From NCBI GenBank assembly GCA_044359815.1, contig JBIKLL010000003.1, positions 1-64,000 of the forward strand: a stretch of 64,000 bases of DNA, read 5' to 3'. This document shows positions 1 to 52,649 of this stretch, in pieces. This DNA comes from Pseudobdellovibrionaceae bacterium. GTDB lineage: Bacteria > Bdellovibrionota > Bdellovibrionia > Bdellovibrionales > Bdellovibrionaceae. Position numbers and translations under genes: made by a program. Numbering within the stretch: the first letter of the stretch is position 1; each line of letters opens with the position of its first letter. The notes beneath the pieces were generated by a model. The model did no database searches. It saw only the letters and a program-made list of their open reading frames with translations, and was not told the origin of the DNA.

Positions 1-185
1 CGTAAAACTGATTAATCTAAATGACTCAATACGAGAGATGAGCCCGCGGCCGTTAGCGAGTGTCTAAAAATAGTGAAAAAAATTACCTTTGTATTTACGC
101 AACACCAGATATGCCATGCGCGCTCGCTGGATGTATTCAAAAGATGTAAAATCATAGAAGTGTTTTTTAAATTTAAAACTTCTAT
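1..185. repeat. Type I nested palindromic element, copy 1 (right half; truncated by window start)
   Basis: 1-150 closely matches 3695-3860: S3' arm, module A TACGAGAGATGAGCCCGCGGCCGTTAGCGA, S2' arm, short module B CACCAGATATGCCATGCGCGCTCGCTGGAT, outer arm GTATTCAAAAGATGTAAAA. Confidence 0.93.
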
Positions 186-463
186 TTTCGTAAATTAAAT
201 AAGACTGAGTTTGTCGGCTGATTTTCAAAAATAAATGGTTTAAGTGCTGAGGCGGACGGAGGTTTTTGTTCCGGACGGGAAGTCGATTTTTCTCAACAAA
301 ATAGTTTTGTTCCAGTAAATAAAAAAGCGATCCGAGGACCGCTTTTCTCTCCTCAAAAGGAGACTCTATGTACAACCATAGAATTTATCGGAATAAACCT
401 AGGGATCTTTATCGGATTGGACTATCCTGGACCGGACCGGGGTCCAGAAAAATAAATTCTGTC

Positions 464-3485: not shown

Positions 3486-3902
3486 AAAACAAATTAGTGG
3501 TTTTAGAATTTTAAAAAATATGTCTGTGTTTTTACACCTTTTGAATACCCGCTAACGGCCGCAAGCTCATCTCTCGTATTGCGTAAAAGCAAAGATAATT
3601 TGTTTTTACTGTTTTTAGACACATGCAGCGAGCGTGCGGGGCATATCTGGTGTTGAGTCATTTAGACTAATCAGTTTTAAGATAATTTATTAATCATAAA
3701 AGTGATTAGTCTAAATGACTCAATACGAGAGATGAGCCCGCGGCCGTTAGCGAGTGTCTAAAAATAGTGAAAAAAATTATCTTTGCATTTACGCATCACG
3801 AGATATGCGGCGGTAAATTAACCGTCGCGCTCGCTGGATGTATTCAAAAGGTGTAAAAACACAGACATATTTTTTAAAATTCTAAAACCACTGATTTGTT
3901 TT
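3486..3902. repeat. Type I nested palindromic element, copy 2 (complete, 417 bp)
   Basis: Outer arms 3486-3548/3840-3902 (62 of 63 complementary); middle arms 3579-3622/3754-3796; inner hairpin 3653-3723; GC modules A' 3549-3578, B' 3623-3652, A 3724-3753, B 3797-3839. Confidence 0.97.
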
Positions 3903-3969
3903 CAGAATTATTAGCAATCTCAAATATGTAAAGCGAATTGATCTTTGCTAAGCCCTTGGCTGTTCGAAA

Positions 3970-5079
3970 TTAAAGGCAAGGAAGTTCAAAATTGACTTCG
4001 ACTTGTCCCCCAGAGCTCTTGATTTCCAGGTTTGAGCTGTGAGCCTTTAGGATGGACTGACAGATTGTTAAACCCAATCCCACACCTGATGAATGGTTCA
4101 TGGCGTCCTCATCGATAAAAAACGGACTCAAGATTTTATCAATCACTGATTTTGGGATTTCAGGGCCAGGGTTTGTGATAGTGAATTTCACCCGATGTGC
4201 TGATGACAGCGCCGATTTAACAGAAATCTCGGCACCCGTCGGTCCAAATTTGACGGCATTGTGGATCAGTCTGTTGAAAACCTGTTGAATCATTGATTTA
4301 TCAGCAACGATGCGTTTTTCAACAAACTGAGTGTTCACTGATTGTTTTTTCTTGCGCAGTTGTTCGCTGATTTCGCCAGTTTTTGCAAAATCAAGCTCAC
4401 CGAGTGCAAAGGGATGCTGATGGACCTTCAAAGTTTTTGTTTCACCAGCAACCACCAATAAAACATCATCAATCAAATTTTTTAATCTGTCCGTGCTTTT
4501 AAAAATCCGTTCCACACAGAGTTCTTGTTCGTCGTTTAAATGAGATTCTTTCAGTAATTCGGTAAAATTTAAAATCGAAGTCACAGGGGTTTTCAGTTCG
4601 TGATTGATCAACATCATAAATTGATTTTTTGCAGTGTCCAGGGTCTTGAGTTCAGCATTGGCGGCGGTCAGTGCCTGATTTTTTTCCCTCAGCTCAGCGC
4701 CCAGCCGAAATCTTTCCATGGCAGCATCAACTGTTGCCATCAAATCCACTGGATCCCAAGGTTTAGCCAGGTAGCGATAGATTTGGCCCGAGTTCACAGC
4801 GGCAATCACTGATTGAATATCAGTGTAGCCCGTCAGCAGTATGCGAATCACGTTGGGGTAGCTTTTCAGAGTGCGTTCTAAAAACTCGACCCCAGTCATA
4901 TTGGGCATGCGTTGATCGGTGATGATCACGCCCACGTCGTCTGGATGTTGGTCCAGAATTTTTAGAGCTTCTTTGCCAGAAGTGGCTTTCAGCACGGGAT
5001 ATTTGGTTCTGAATAATCTTTCCAGGGCATCAACATTGTCGACCTCATCGTCGACGCAAAGAATAGTAGGTTTCATCAT
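3970..5079 (-). CDS. Hybrid response regulator receiver / histidine kinase
   Basis: ILCVDDE and ITDQRMP receiver; NHELKTP HisKA; NAVKF and GVGLGL HATPase. Confidence 0.92.
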   Translation of the reverse strand: MMKPTILCVDDEVDNVDALERLFRTKYPVLKATSGKEALKILDQHPDDVGVIITDQRMPNMTGVEFLERTLKSYPNVIRILLTGYTDIQSVIAAVNSGQIYRYLAKPWDPVDLMATVDAAMERFRLGAELREKNQALTAANAELKTLDTAKNQFMMLINHELKTPVTSILNFTELLKESHLNDEQELCVERIFKSTDRLKNLIDDVLLVVAGETKTLKVHQHPFALGELDFAKTGEISEQLRKKKQSVNTQFVEKRIVADKSMIQQVFNRLIHNAVKFGPTGAEISVKSALSSAHRVKFTITNPGPEIPKSVIDKILSPFFIDEDAMNHSSGVGLGLTICQSILKAHSSNLEIKSSGGQVEVNFELPCL

Positions 5080-5154
5080 GGGATTAGTGTAAAATTTAAT
5101 TTGCAAACAGTACAGACAGAAAAACACATGCGAACAGGATGTTCTTAGGATGTT

Positions 5155-18003: not shown

Positions 18004-18738
18004 ATGTTGAAGGTTTTAGTATTTTTATTTTTAACCGAAATCGCAGTCGCCAGGATTGATTTTCCCACCGGCATGAACTCCAAAGACCGCATCGCGGTCA
18101 TGCAAATTTTAGGATTTGGTTCAGCAACAAAATTATTAAGCAACCCGTATCCGTTGGGCGGCTATCATGGGATTGAGATTGGTCTTTCGACCGACGTGAT
18201 CTCAACAGAACAAATCGGCAATTTAGGAAACAAGGCTCGCTCCCGTGATCAATTAAGCTTTACCAGTGTCACTGTCGGCAAGGGACTGTACAGCGATGTG
18301 GATGTGTTTTTTCAGTTCACTCCATTTATTGAATCAGATAGCGTTTCGGCCATAGGCGGGCAGATAAGATATGGTTTTTTCGAAGCCAGTTATTTACCCA
18401 TTCACTTGAGTATTGTTCTGCATGGTAACAGCGTTAATTTTCAGAATCAGTATGTGGCAGATAATTTTGGCAGTGATTTTGTTGGTGGCATCAGTGTTCA
18501 AGACGTAACCCTGTACGCAGGGTTTGGGTTTGCAACTACTTATGGAAGATTTTTGGGGATGGGGGGCACGGATTCGCAGGGGAATCTGCTGACCAATCAG
18601 GAAACAGTCAAGGAATCCTATTTTAGCATCCACCGTCTGGCAGGGATTCAGGTCAATTTGGGCGAAATGTTTTTATCATTCCAAATAGACCGCTATGTCG
18701 AGGCCACCTTCGCCGCCAAGCTAGGCTACCGTTTTTAA
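18004..18738 (+). CDS. Putative outer-membrane beta-barrel protein
   Basis: Signal peptide, alternating beta pattern, C-terminal LGYRF. Confidence 0.7.
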   Translation: MLKVLVFLFLTEIAVARIDFPTGMNSKDRIAVMQILGFGSATKLLSNPYPLGGYHGIEIGLSTDVISTEQIGNLGNKARSRDQLSFTSVTVGKGLYSDVDVFFQFTPFIESDSVSAIGGQIRYGFFEASYLPIHLSIVLHGNSVNFQNQYVADNFGSDFVGGISVQDVTLYAGFGFATTYGRFLGMGGTDSQGNLLTNQETVKESYFSIHRLAGIQVNLGEMFLSFQIDRYVEATFAAKLGYRF

Positions 18739-18955
18739 GCAAAACCTAGCCTTTTCTAAAAATAAATTTTCCAGAAAAAGTTTATAAAATATAGATATAA
18801 TTTTGTTTAAAATGGTTCTCCGCGGAGCCATGGATGGCGGGGGCTTGTCCCGAGTGGCTGAGGCTGGAGGCCGTAACCATTTTAAATTAAATTATATCTA
18901 TATTTTATAAACTTTTTCTGGAAAATTTATTTTTAGAAAAGGCTAGGTTTTGCTT
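18737..18955. repeat. Type II palindromic element (81 bp arms, 57 nt structured core)
   Basis: Arms 18737-18817/18875-18955 are complementary at 79 of 81 positions; GC-rich core 18818-18874. Confidence 0.97.
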
Positions 18956-29261: not shown

Positions 29262-29360
29262 AATTTGAATTTCAAAAATCCAAATATTTGATTTTTCTTT
29301 TAAAGACCACAGCTCGTGCTTCTCTGCTCGGGCAGGCCCCCGCCATCCGGGCTCCGCAGT
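29262..29360 (-). repeat. Type II element, one-armed copy
   Basis: Reverse complement of 29305-29360 (ACTGCGGAGCCCGGATGGCGGGGGCCTGCCCGAGCAGAGAAGCACGAGCTGTGGTC) closely matches 34772-34828; only one AT-rich arm is present. Confidence 0.9.
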
Positions 29361-34706: not shown

Positions 34707-34888
34707 CCCCATCTTTGTTACTGAAAATAAAATTTAGAATTTTAAATATTTGTTTTTACATAAAAAGACCCTCTGCGGAGCCTGGACGGCGGGGGCACGG
34801 CCCGAGCAGAGAAGCAGGAGCTGTGGTCTTTTTATGTAAAAACAAATATTTAAAATTCTAAATTTTATTTTCAGTAACGAAGATGGGG
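34707..34888. repeat. Type II palindromic element (64 bp arms, 54 nt structured core)
   Basis: Arms 34707-34770/34825-34888 are complementary at 63 of 64; core 34771-34824; extra outer pairing 34683-34705/34896-34917. Confidence 0.97.
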
Positions 34889-50958: not shown

Positions 50959-51639
50959 ATGAAGTTTTCAGCTATTATTGTTTTATTGCTGCATTTATGT
51001 TTACCAGCTGTAGGACAGTTTAGCTGCCAAGACATATTTCTACCGCAACAGATCTCGACTGATGCCTTGTCGGTCCTAATCAAACGTGAAAATCAAACAA
51101 TCGTTTATGCCAGAACCAACCGCGGAATCCTGGAGCTATCGACTGAGCACTATGGACCGAAAATAATGAATCTTTCCAGATTCAAAAACAAAATTGTTAT
51201 GGATGCTGGATGTGGCGACGGTAAATTTGTTGAGCAATTAAATAAACTTGGGGTGCAAGTTTTTGGCTTGGATCTGCATTTAACTGAATATCAAAAGTCC
51301 AGACCCAATCTGTTTCTGCAAAAGGATCTGCGTCAGACGGAACTTCCTGGTGAATCAGTTGATTTTATTTTTTCCACATGGAGTGTGATCAGTTACGAGG
51401 CCGGGATTGATAAATCATCAAAACTGGTAGTCGATGTGTTGAACGAGATGAATCGAGTACTGGCACCCGGGGGCTATATGTATATAAGCCCCAGGCCAAC
51501 CAGCAAACTGGGTAGCACCTTAGTTCATTCTCACTTAATCAAATTGGGTTTAGAGGTCCAAGAATTTTCCTATGGCCCAGATGAAATCAGAGTCTACAAG
51601 GGCCTCGAAATCTACAAGCCCATTTCTGAAAAAAAATAA
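50959..51639 (+). CDS. Class I SAM-dependent methyltransferase with N-terminal signal peptide
   Basis: MDAGCGDG, GLDL, ESVDFI, EMNRVLAPGG; hydrophobic N-terminus. Confidence 0.85.
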   Translation: MKFSAIIVLLLHLCLPAVGQFSCQDIFLPQQISTDALSVLIKRENQTIVYARTNRGILELSTEHYGPKIMNLSRFKNKIVMDAGCGDGKFVEQLNKLGVQVFGLDLHLTEYQKSRPNLFLQKDLRQTELPGESVDFIFSTWSVISYEAGIDKSSKLVVDVLNEMNRVLAPGGYMYISPRPTSKLGSTLVHSHLIKLGLEVQEFSYGPDEIRVYKGLEIYKPISEKK

Positions 51640-51647
51640 TTAGATGG

Positions 51648-52067
51648 CCCCTTTTTCTTCGGCAACTTTGGATTTTAAAAATTATTTCTATGATTTTACA
51701 CCTTGAGAATACATTTGCGAGCGCGACATTTAATTTACCGCCGCATATCTGGTGATGCGTAAATGCAAAGATAATTTTTTTCACTATTTTTAGACACTCG
51801 CTAACGGCCGCGGGCTCATCTCTCGTATTGAGTCATTTAGACTAATCACTTTTACGATTAATAAATTATCTTAAAACTGATTAGTCTAAATGACTCAACA
51901 CCAGATATGCCCCGCACGCTCGCTGCATGTGTCTAAAAACAGTAAAAACAAATTACCTATGCATTTACGCAATACGAGAGATGAGCCCGCGGCCGTTAGC
52001 AAGTATTCTCAAGATGTAAAATCATAGAAATAATTTTTAAAATTCAAAGTAACTGCAGAAAAAGGGG
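51648..52067. repeat. Type I nested palindromic element, copy 3 (complete, inverted relative to copy 2)
   Basis: 51713-52002 is near-identical to the reverse complement of 3549-3839; outer arms 51648-51712/52003-52067. Confidence 0.97.
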
Positions 52068-52109: not shown

Positions 52110-52649
52110 CTAATTTAATCCTTGTTCATAGGTCTGTTGCCAGTGCGACAGGGTTTTTATCCAAATCAGTTTTGATTGATTTTCTGAGCGCTGAAGGATT
52201 CTGATAAGCTCAGGTCTCATTTGTGTATGGCTTTTCCAAGCTGTCCTCAGTAATTTCACAGTGTGACGGAAGGACAATTCATTGGCGCCTTTGGGCAACT
52301 CAGGGCGAGGATTACAAATGTTTGTGATTTGCCTTTTGATAATCCAAAAAAAATGTCGGGGTAGTTTAAAATCGACAAAAACAATTCGATCACTCAGTTT
52401 GAATCTTTCCTGCAGAACATCCAAGGGGCCGTAACCATCAATGATCCACTCTGATTGCTGGTGAATTTTCTGCAGCTCAGAAATGGTTTCTTGGTAAGGT
52501 TTGATCTGCAGATCAACAGTGAACTGCAGACTGTCTATGTGGGTAACTGGCAGGTTCAACAATTGCCCAAGCTGCGCGCTGAGCTTGGTTTTTCCGCCGC
52601 CACTGTTTCCGATAACTGCGATTTTTTTTGGTCTTGAAGGTTTCTGCAA
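52110..52649 (-). CDS. P-loop kinase-like protein (FlaR/topology modulation family)
   Basis: IGNSGGGKT, HIDSL, WIIDG. Confidence 0.82.
   Translation of the reverse strand: MQKPSRPKKIAVIGNSGGGKTKLSAQLGQLLNLPVTHIDSLQFTVDLQIKPYQETISELQKIHQQSEWIIDGYGPLDVLQERFKLSDRIVFVDFKLPRHFFWIIKRQITNICNPRPELPKGANELSFRHTVKLLRTAWKSHTQMRPELIRILQRSENQSKLIWIKTLSHWQQTYEQGLN

Follow-up and report, generated by a model that had tools for sequence, protein, structure and literature searches.

Palindromic intergenic repeats, such as REP, BIME, ERIC, and Correia elements, have been known for some forty years, and their spread and role are still debated. Correia and RUP elements duplicate TA, and the ssoA-type origins of rolling-circle replicons carry a conserved hexamer, CS-6, in the loop that closes a long hairpin. 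In REP/BIME systems, a y unit and a z unit placed inversely to each other make up the functional pair, and the number and make-up of units at a locus vary between strains, as described in several reports on these repeats (PMC3333891, PMC3116915, and PMC2817692). According to one of them, TnpAREP of E. coli binds BIMEs only in single-stranded form, requires a mismatch in the REP stem, cuts both strands of BIMEs, and exchanges strands (PMC3333891). A recent preprint presents REPs as terminator-stabilizers, whose location between convergent genes correlates with higher expression of both (bioRxiv 10.64898/2026.03.23.713779). ERIC/IRU, Correia, RUP, and BOX elements are bacterial MITE-like imperfect palindromes of 100-400 bp (PMC2229807, PMC3184786, and PMC10969869), and the ends of IS200/IS605 elements are two separate subterminal hairpins on one strand, with no long terminal inverted repeats (PMC6006769).

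The element analyzed here lies in the draft genome of an uncultured Bdellovibrio-like bacterium (G000; 2.95 Mb, 91% complete, 125 contigs), from which a whole stretch of 64 kb, hereafter the window, was investigated. Positions 3486-3902 of the window form a non-coding nested palindrome, which is one copy of a hairpin repeat with about a hundred copies. Its modules follow the order S1-A'-S2-B'-S3-loop-S3'-A-S2'-B-S1' proposed in an earlier note on this DNA, which is legible directly in the window sequence. On the plus strand, to which all parts are assigned, the left outer AT-rich arm S1 (3486..3548) pairs with the right outer AT-rich arm S1' (3840..3902) over 63 nt at 98% complementarity. Between them lie box a (A'; 3549..3578), the GC-rich box of the outer shell and reverse complement of the A type; S2 (3579..3622), the stem joining the outer and inner shells; box b (B'; 3623..3652), the inner-shell box and reverse complement of the B type; S3 (3653..3719), an apical hairpin with a variable stem and loop on a conserved base (GAGTCAT/ATGACTC); box A of the inner shell (3720..3750); S2' (3751..3792), the partner of S2; and box B of the outer shell (3793..3839), present here as a long variant with an optional mini-hairpin at 3807-3826. 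The first 14 nt of S2 form the apical mini-hairpin of the outer shell, and its inner half is similar to S1. Almost perfect pairing had been claimed for all stems, which is true of S1 and was overstated for S2, where 38 nt (with 3770-3807) and 23 nt pair at 87% each; the S3 arms (42 nt) are 88% complementary. This copy is atypical in being without the outer terminal module T (..CTGGCCCACTTGNCTGCNGT..) found on most copies, and the sole ORF inside it has 52 aa, in agreement with the earlier view that no enzyme is encoded.

The working unit of the family is a shell, in which two homologous, unlike GC-rich boxes, both some 30 nt long, are set opposite one another across a hairpin on long AT-rich arms and form an imperfect duplex with fixed mismatches, and a full-length element is one shell inverted within the apical hairpin of another. 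Alignment supports the claim that A and B are diverged homologues. In sequence, box A is the perfect partner of box a (A' can also pair with A, over 56 nt at 80%), yet in the folded rod it faces box b with G.T, G.A, and G.G mismatches; both the sequence and the folds agree with the mismatch types described before, these three on one strand and pyrimidine-rich and A.C mismatches on the other. Because one unit sits inverted inside another, each strand presents one purine-mismatch site; the strand symmetry described before is a plain consequence of this nesting, and any use of a site on both strands would be hypothetical. DNA folding of both strands results in a rod (-155.8 kcal/mol, z -30.8, for the plus strand and -145 kcal/mol, z -25.3, for the minus strand), and 0 of 100 shuffled controls matched the folding energy of either strand.

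All three copies previously counted in the 64 kb were recovered (3486-3902; 51672-52048 on the minus strand; and a partial copy at 3-188). The second full-length copy, with module T at both ends, extends over 51648..52067 on the minus strand and is 92.6% identical to the first copy over 378 nt; its arms (51648-51712 and 52003-52067) are 65 nt long with 91% complementarity, and it sits between the convergent ORFs 50959-51639 (+) and 52110-52649 (-). The third copy (1..188, plus strand) consists of the right half alone (A, S2', B, and S1'), cut by the contig start, with box A at 31, box B at 104, and 83.9% identity to first-copy positions 212-403. A genome-wide BLAST search of the 2.95-Mb draft revealed 109 loci, dispersed singly, 34 of which are interior full-length copies. 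The interior architectures are abAB (16), baBA (18), aB (7), and bA (6), where a and b are the reverse complements of A and B, plus a few truncated forms. The unlike-box mismatch pattern is kept in these further copies, with aA or bB in none of the two-box groups and all 59 innermost shells reading a..B, so that the mismatched pair is a kept feature in all copies examined and not an accident of a single copy. The A-type box motif has 64+64 occurrences in the genome (0 for the reversed-pattern control), and about 130 boxes per genome hold the mismatched pair constant. Module T was found at 106 ends and is common to Type I elements, the kind described here, and to Type II sister elements.

The possibility that the palindromes are an assembly artefact was rejected, as contigs of four lake-water sequencing runs, with 0 differences, lead from the unique sequence on either side into the element, and a full-length copy is also present in a separate metagenome assembly (L012). 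Word depth in the lake-water runs was 3-10 in the flanks versus 220-1745 inside the element. As contig ends are touched by 29 of the 109 loci, the repeat family accounts for many of the contig breaks in the draft. No empty-site joint was detected among the lake-water contigs, which do not span the whole window copy. Separately, an "opposite strands" joint from 3715 to 3797 was observed in one contig each of two runs, and any copy could be its source.

Conservation is distributed very unevenly over the modules. Mean pairwise identity over 30 copies is 92% for box a, 94% for box b, and 99% for box A, whereas it is 73-78% for S1 and 45% for the S3 apex; box B has a head of 92%, a variable middle of 53%, and a tail of 83%, its short and long variants alternating between copies. 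S2 (94%) and S2' (97%) are also uniform, and their mismatches are the same in all copies. The S1 arms are 95.9% complementary within a copy versus 78.1% across copies, a value reached in 0 of 5000 permutations, and in 54 apical hairpins 776 of 836 outer stem positions are paired in 39 distinct stems. The arms and the apical stem therefore diverge fast while staying self-complementary, and the boxes are near-invariant. In many copies the palindromy reaches into the unique flanks, where the longest inverted match is 6.90 versus 5.41 nt and reaches 7 nt or more in 9 of 20 cases. The short forms resemble products of deletion between short direct repeats (TTTG and TTGCAT). Variable stems acting as guide- or spacer-like sequences were considered and rejected, their matches being truncated elements at contig ends or AT-rich near-matches of 16-19 nt.

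The same a/B box pair is also present in two genomes (3 and 6 copies) of g111, a genus of another family, whose a-box is homologous to box a. All nine g111 copies are without module T and have unrelated, copy-specific arms of 42-134 nt, eight of the nine possessing an arm pair of 93-100% complementarity (the two pairs of L063, 95% and 84%). Between G000 and g111, both sides of base pairs have changed (GCAGG:CCTGC versus GCGGG:CCCGC; CAT:ATG versus CGT:ACG) and the C-versus-A mismatch is retained, which fits recognition of a folded strand. One orthologous intergenic site is occupied in G344, empty in G343 and G345, and taken by a different palindromic element in G342. Insertion of the cores into pre-existing repeated palindromes was dropped as an explanation, the g111 arm sequence (L057) being found nowhere else in five genomes of the genus; inverted duplication of local flanks was also abandoned as the origin of the arms, as the empty orthologous sites contain no arm-like sequence. 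The arms of Type II elements form a continuum from near-consensus to unrelated, and fast paired drift is now preferred over flank duplication. An order-wide BLAST search gave short, weak matches in 27 genomes (E 1e-4 to 1e-2), of which two loci were inspected and the other 25 judged by query ranges; of these two only L040 proved a genuine relative, L042 being an AT-rich match within apparently ordinary sequence. The box pattern search found dissimilar one-mismatch matches in G321 (3) and G331 (2), and more diverged cores may be missed by BLAST and the box pattern. Phage records had no match to the element, viral contigs had 0 occurrences of the box pattern, and the sole match in a pattern scan of assembled genome contigs was a chance one, inside coding DNA of an unrelated MAG.

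The description of the element as non-autonomous, non-coding, and multi-copy has been sustained, and the best explanation, held with roughly even confidence, is a lineage-specific intergenic repeat of REP/BIME/REPIN type, palindromic and mosaic in structure, whose boxes would be read as a folded single strand. The boxes would be the putative recognition site of a trans-acting protein, for which TnpAREP of E. coli may serve as a model by analogy, and the folded form might be single-stranded DNA exposed at replication or, possibly, RNA of the 3' UTR. Such an enzyme, or plain recombination among copies and between arms, would homogenize the cores, flip the elements, and keep the arms paired. Placement at 3' ends is probably something the genome tolerates, and the elements may in addition serve the two neighboring transcripts as a 3'-end hairpin. 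It should be noted that the uniformity of the cores could arise by gene conversion alone, with no dedicated protein.

Genomic position bears on the first alternative, a host-serving RNA module at 3' ends, in which read-through of convergent genes would give a long hairpin that ends or stabilizes the two messages or serves as substrate for a double-strand RNase; the boxes would be an internal loop recognized by a protein or RNase, with one loop per transcript through the inverted nesting. Spacers between convergent genes hold 36 of the 53 interior elements (background, 411/2503), divergent spacers hold three, crude ORF overlap was seen for 1 of 53, and the elements start a few tens of nucleotides past stop codons, commonly about 30-45. 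Co-varying stems with fixed internal loops are the usual mark of structured RNA, the box duplex co-varies across two families, and the Type II elements, in which T-runs follow a GC hairpin on each strand, resemble two-way terminators. A terminator-stabilizing role is reported for REPs in the preprint cited above. However, the Type I core is followed by no T-run, and 0 promoter- or terminator-like sites were detected in or beside the window copy. G.T pairs are rare compared with A.C among the stem variants, which does not resemble the outcome of selection on RNA; close relatives differ in orientation about at random, and in tandem contexts the 6/8 split in how single shells are oriented to the gene upstream is not convincing as a bias. 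In addition, orthologous loci contain rearranged elements instead of preserved ones. The RNA module is considered unlikely, though it deserves some weight.

These rearrangements were seen in a close metagenomic relative with flanks 88-96% identical to those of G000, in which nine of nine loci are occupied in both genomes, so that recent transposition lacks support within the genus (ten loci were available; L018, unrelated to G000, was left out, and the identity values of L012, L015, and L016, distorted by alignment ends, were not used). At these common loci the boxes are nearly unchanged, and orientation is opposite at three, probably four, of eight comparable loci, including L021, the ortholog of the 51648-52067 copy. 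The apex (L017 versus C113), the short or long mini-hairpin variant of box B (L014 versus C87), and the inner unit have also been exchanged at orthologous loci. Such frequent recombination between copies, the palindromy extending into unique flanks, and the deletions between short direct repeats at hairpin bases are all compatible with a passive palindrome family that has no dedicated protein, in which gene conversion among about 100 copies would keep the cores uniform, template switching at hairpins during replication would keep the arms paired, and the unlike boxes would perpetuate a chance feature of the founder. Nevertheless, a second bacterial family has also kept the unlike pair, with both sides of base pairs altered and one mismatch retained, and gene conversion among many copies cannot explain the g111 pair, because there the arms are wholly different and the copies few (3 and 6). 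Moreover, the fixed mismatches of S2/S2' and the boxes have remained uncorrected by arm-to-arm repair in all 30 copies. A wholly passive origin appears improbable.

Traces of insertion were searched for at the element ends. No general target-site duplication was found in 20 pairs of ends (longest direct match, 5.75 nt in true pairs versus 5.48 nt in mismatched pairs), and no offset was enriched, as expected for HUH-type and not DDE-type movement; in two of the 20 pairs, direct repeats lie equally far from the two element ends (C48, 10/10 nt; C50, 9/10 nt). A TA target duplication of the IS630/mariner-like type was considered and dropped, with T at only 37% and A at 64% of the expected places. 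In the G000 draft, the counts of DDE_Tnp_1, DDE_3, IS110, and TnpB genes are all 0, one rve gene lies on an unrelated 2.4-kb contig, and the genome-wide BLAST search revealed no long copy that could be a parent insertion sequence with the same ends. A classical MITE, in which module T would be the end recognized in trans by a DDE transposase and the GC-rich boxes mere passengers, is very unlikely. The non-coding length below 600 bp, the 106 T-type ends across both element types, and the two symmetric repeats speak for it, but conservation is lowest at the termini and highest in the core, the reverse of a MITE, T is absent from the window copy and all g111 copies, and neither a general duplication nor a DDE_Tnp_1, DDE_3, or IS110 gene was seen.

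For the preferred reading, a repeat recognized as a folded single strand, Y1/HUH proteins are the best candidate enzyme class in this genome, although the assignment is tentative and rather doubtful. Y1_Tnp genes are present in all three carriers (nine in G000, five in G344, and two in G342), and the non-carrier G343 holds eight. One G000 gene is a homologue of TnpAREP (PDB 4er8, E 3.3e-5). The link to an HUH RAYT enzyme raised in the earlier note did not materialize: no Y1 gene of G000 is flanked by element boxes, and on either side of the sole RAYT homologue (C8:9501-10160) there is a different REP, AGTCGTACGGTCTCTTTT, which has about 43 sites, one inverted pair being around the gene. An eight-copy, 203-aa Y1-like family of G000 has no boxes nearby and is not adjacent to elements; it occurs in 24 of 40 relatives without the element, lies at the cut-off of Pfam Y1_Tnp (22.1 versus 23 bits), and has no significant similarity to solved Y1 transposases (E about 0.9). 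The genome also contains two tyrosine-recombinase genes. With 91% completeness and 125 contigs, an enzyme gene or autonomous copy could be missing from the draft.

A more specific proposal, regarded as unlikely at present, is that a putative dedicated factor, common to two distant predatory genera, docks on the mismatched box pair and would read the folded strand, either as single-stranded DNA at the fork or as a 3' UTR hairpin. The elements would then be two-way 3'-end modules, whose inverted nesting gives each convergent transcript one functional site, and the factor would also drive flipping and module exchange. If this were true, the family would be a self-renewing, recombination-maintained regulatory repeat and not junk. 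The family offers an unusually clean natural experiment: the box pair is constant and also kept in a second bacterial family, and the arms, apical stem, orientation, and nesting turn over quickly yet remain base-paired, which separates what must be recognized from what must merely fold. The box pair also provides defined oligonucleotide substrates for the Y1/HUH proteins common in these predators.

In comparison with known families, no described one was recognized, in accordance with the earlier note. The whole window gave 0 Rfam matches at the gathering score, as did a g111 copy; at E<=1 the element matched miRNA-precursor models only, far below threshold, and literature searches found no description of such a repeat in Bdellovibrio-like bacteria. 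The suggested resemblance to single-strand origins, based on the ssoA CS-6 hexamer TAGCGA, is best read as chance: the hexamer is confined to the inner A box (TAGCAA in the outer box, TAGCGG in g111), where it belongs to a stem region, and the repeat is chromosomal with about 100 copies. Unlike integron attC sites, which have R/L core sites with extrahelical bases and belong to cassette arrays next to an intI gene, the copies are dispersed singly. Like PATEs derived from IS200/IS605, the element has no target duplication, Y1 genes are frequent in its carriers, and a Y1/HUH enzyme would recognize its imperfect hairpins in single-stranded DNA; in contrast to them, the whole element is one rod, and no Y1 gene lies inside or beside any copy.

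With ERIC/IRU, Correia (NEMIS), RUP, and BOX, the family shares non-coding, intergenic long hairpins in dozens to hundreds of copies and, with BOX, modularity. The terminal inverted repeats of a MITE are also present in the 63-nt S1 arms and the T ends, with neither a fixed-length target-site duplication nor, in the draft genome, a parent insertion sequence. Correia and RUP differ in their target duplication, and, unlike in all of these families, conservation is lowest at the termini and resides in the internal mismatched box pair, which another bacterial family also has on unrelated arms. The comparison with REPINs and BIMEs made in the earlier note proved right, given inverted, non-identical GC-rich units at 109 extragenic loci at 3' ends. 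Like REP/BIME of E. coli and REPINs of Pseudomonas, the elements are high-copy extragenic GC-rich imperfect palindromes, built as an inverted pair of related, unlike units with retained stem mismatches, and, like the REPs of the recent preprint, they are found at 3' ends and between convergent genes (bioRxiv 10.64898/2026.03.23.713779). They differ in having boxes of about 30 nt on AT-rich arms of 45-130 nt, giving rods of 220-420 bp versus hairpins of 35 nt, and one unit nested inverted in another versus the tandem alternation of BIMEs. By eye, no GTAG or CGTC tag is evident (the boxes end in GTTAGC/GCTAAC, and the long B variant holds CGTCGC), and in the 91% complete draft the cognate RAYT gene flanked by the same repeats, which is typical of REPs, was not seen. 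The element is a new family of a familiar, REP/BIME/REPIN-like kind, distinctive in its mismatched GC-rich box pair, which is kept in a distant relative.

The element at 3486-3902 (plus strand) has the module order S1, a, S2, b, S3 hairpin, A, S2', B, S1', in which A and B are two types of GC-rich box, a and b their reverse complements, and S1-S3 stems. Its outer S1 arms (63 nt) are 98% complementary, pairing reaches 87% in S2 and 88% in S3, and both strands fold to a rod, with -155.8 kcal/mol (z -30.8 against shuffles) for the plus strand and -145 kcal/mol (z -25.3 against shuffles) for the minus strand. Module order, arm pairing and folds thus confirm the nested hairpin that an earlier note had described, with a and b there written A' and B'. 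The accompanying interpretation, a non-autonomous element recognised in folded form regardless of orientation, was supported in part; the ssoA hexamer that it pointed to in module A is not conserved across box variants. No protein coding capacity was detected inside the element, and no promoter-like or terminator-like sites in or beside this copy, which lies between two minus-strand ORFs and lacks T, the outer terminal module of most copies. A second Type I copy at 51672-52048 (minus strand), matching the first, has convergent ORFs as neighbours, and half a copy occupies the first 188 bases of the window, where the contig begins.

Interior architectures in the host draft genome, G000, were read from the positions of A-type and B-type box heads, located on both strands. 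The orders abAB and baBA were found in 16 and 18 interior copies and the orders aB and bA in 7 and 6, together with a few truncated or odd forms (aBA, abA, aAB, bBA), and neither aA nor bB occurred among the two-box groups of interior elements. All 59 innermost shells (two boxes facing each other across a hairpin) that were extracted had the form a-hairpin-B, which, together with the consistently unlike architectures, shows that two unlike boxes facing each other make up the unit. A full-length element is one such shell placed, inverted, inside the apical hairpin of another. This arrangement explains the earlier observation of one purine-mismatch site per strand, which follows from the nesting of inverted shells. 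The resemblance between the inner half of S2 and S1 fits nesting as well, as does the occurrence of the outer shell alone with a small apical hairpin (contigs C5 and C110).

Compared in pairs, 30 interior full-length copies had a mean identity of 92-99% in the boxes and S2, 73-78% in S1, 53% in the middle of box B (an optional mini-hairpin), 45% in the S3 apex and about 20% in the flanks. The S1 arms were 95.9% complementary within copies versus 78.1% between copies, which was reached by none of 5000 permutations. Similarly, 776 of 836 outer stem positions were paired in 54 apical hairpins, with 39 different stem sequences. All copies had identical mismatches, both in the S2/S2' stem and between the facing boxes. 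Few G.T pairs were present among stem variants, which is no sign of selection on RNA.

An assembly artefact can be dismissed, as in four runs contigs lead from each unique flank into the window copy without a single difference, and a full-length copy is also present in a separate metagenome assembly (locus L012). The runs holding this stretch are labelled as lake-water metagenomes. Summed word depth, 3-10 in the flanks, reached 220-1745 within the copy, a rise that fits a repeat present in roughly a hundred copies, and no contig among those of the four runs crossed the whole copy. The copy number check by BLAST gave 333 alignments in G000 (2.95 Mb, 125 contigs, 41% GC, 91% complete; the window lies on contig C49), merging to 109 loci. 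Contig ends were touched by 29 of these, and several small contigs were bounded by elements; the repeat is among the main reasons why this assembly is fragmented. In addition, in two lake-water runs a single contig each (depth 6.8 and 4.0) joined window position 3715 to 3797 on opposite strands; this may reflect an inversion form or a copy that is rearranged in some members of the population, the locus not being assignable.

According to a crude ORF map, 53 interior elements had neighbours at both ends; 36 of them lay in convergent, 14 in tandem and 3 in divergent spacers, against a genome-wide background of 411 convergent spacers out of 2503. The BLAST-defined element typically began a few tens of nucleotides after the stop codon (commonly about 30-45), and only one of the 53 overlapped an ORF. 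At 106 T-type ends, information faded about six bases outside GGCCCAC, and TA was absent. No target duplication was detected across 20 elements with both T ends (longest direct match 5.75 nt on average, versus 5.48 nt in mismatched pairs); two copies had direct repeats of 9-10 nt, equally far from either end. Inverted complementarity continued into the unique flanks (6.90 versus 5.41 nt; at least 7 nt in 9 of 20). A MITE is ruled against by the lack of target duplication and by the conservation pattern.

A close relative of G000, represented by nine contigs in one metagenome assembly (flanks 88-96% identical), provided a view of turnover at fixed loci. The orthologous G000 site was also occupied at all nine loci, with almost no point changes in the boxes. 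At L017/C113 the apical stem had given way to a different variant from the family, at L014/C87 only one of the two copies had the B mini-hairpin, at L019/C6 the inner unit and its arms differed, and L013/C34 was rearranged. Orientation relative to the flanks was opposite at four of eight comparable loci (L021, L012, L016 and probably L020). The short forms in G000 look like deletions between direct repeats TTTG and TTGCAT at hairpin bases. Module swaps, flips and trimmed forms show that recombination between copies and between arms is frequent, which can explain much of the uniformity of the core.

The Type I element was confined to G000 among 41 genomes of relatives, and the whole element was not found in 384 genomes of the order; a weak match in the latter pointed to a genuine relative. 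When the 384 genomes were searched for the box pattern, G000 had 64+64 sites (reversed control: none), and several sites sharing a consistent variant of the box came from G342 (6 sites) and G344 (3 sites), two members of a single genus (g111) in another family. Dissimilar one-mismatch sequences accounted for the matches in G321 (3) and G331 (2), the other genomes had 0-1 matches, like the control, and no further carriers were detected in a sample of 401 genomes of the phylum. All nine g111 copies share a core of 80-86 nt consisting of an a-box, an apical hairpin (constant tip, stem variable yet paired) and a B-box, flanked by near-perfect AT-rich arms of 42-134 nt that are unrelated from copy to copy; the one arm tested was unique in five genomes of the genus. 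Between the G000 genus and g111, paired positions of the box duplex differ on both sides and one C-versus-A mismatch is kept. At one orthologous intergenic site, G344 carries an a/B element directly after the stop codon, whereas G343 and G345 have short spacers without it. Occupied versus empty sites and a shared core on unrelated arms imply that these g111 elements are inserted DNA and that the box pair is their long-lived part. At the same site G342 has a different palindromic element (contig C104, about 4770-5130; L066/L070), whose arms measure about 125 nt and whose GC-rich core is another one, so the spot behind that stop codon was hit independently. At another G344 locus (L058, about 3882-4128, on its contig C1), palindromic arms extend into the last codons of both convergent genes, and both readings end ..GGT TAA inside an arm; this palindrome may have grown outward until it met coding sequence.

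A second repeat, Type II, occurs in the window at 18737-18955 and 34707-34888, with near-perfect AT-rich arms (81 and 64 nt, 98%), and as a core alone near 29307-29359. Its core (about 56 nt, CCTCTGCGGAGCCTGGACGGCGGGGGC...GAGCTGTGG) is a different GC-rich sequence from that of Type I, and the genome has 54 Type II loci. In many copies T-runs follow the core immediately on either strand, as in a bidirectional terminator; some share the T module and S1-like arms with Type I, and the arms range from near-consensus to unrelated.

With regard to enzymes, the 91% complete draft had no matches to the DDE_Tnp_1, DDE_3, IS110 and TnpB families; one rve gene (on a small contig), two tyrosine recombinases and nine Y1_Tnp matches were found. 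One of the nine is a TnpAREP homologue (PDB 4er8, E 3.3e-5), bracketed by a 40-nt inverted repeat that is its own REP, with core AGTCGTACGGTCTCTTTT, and not by Type I boxes. This core has about 43 genome sites, mostly inverted pairs 100-280 bp apart, some of them beyond the window on C49 (99-123 kb); the gene and its repeat, at C8:9474-10291 (locus L022, 1207-2024), are a separate, classical REPIN-RAYT system. The other eight (C49:93316-93951, outside the window, and seven other contigs) form one family of 203-aa Y1/HUH-like genes with 81-86% DNA identity, their own upstream region and a Pfam match at the cut-off, each lying between different short tandem repeats (6-8 nt units). None of the eight has a Type I element beside it. 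The family is present in 24 of 40 relatives without the element, and many relatives carry several homologues, up to 17 in one genome. In g111, Y1 genes occur in both carriers (5 and 2) and also in a non-carrier (8). A link between Y1/HUH proteins and Type I elements would be a matter of analogy and opportunity, not of evidence. Defined box-pair substrates make the reader of the box pair, and the form that it reads, directly testable.

No Rfam family matched the element, and a full-text literature search found no description of a comparable repeat in Bdellovibrio-like bacteria. Among known systems the E. coli BIME comes closest; it combines two different REP types in inverse orientation, is bound by TnpAREP only as single strands with a stem mismatch being needed, and differs in make-up between strains, TnpAREP being able to cut both strands and to exchange strands in vitro (PMC3333891). 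In a recent preprint, REPs are reported to act as terminator-stabilisers in 3' UTRs and, between convergent genes, to be associated with higher expression of both (bioRxiv 10.64898/2026.03.23.713779). Compared with the BIME, Type I shows no evident GTAG tag when inspected by eye and no cognate RAYT was found in the 91% complete draft, and it is distinguished by its long AT-rich arms and its inverted nesting.
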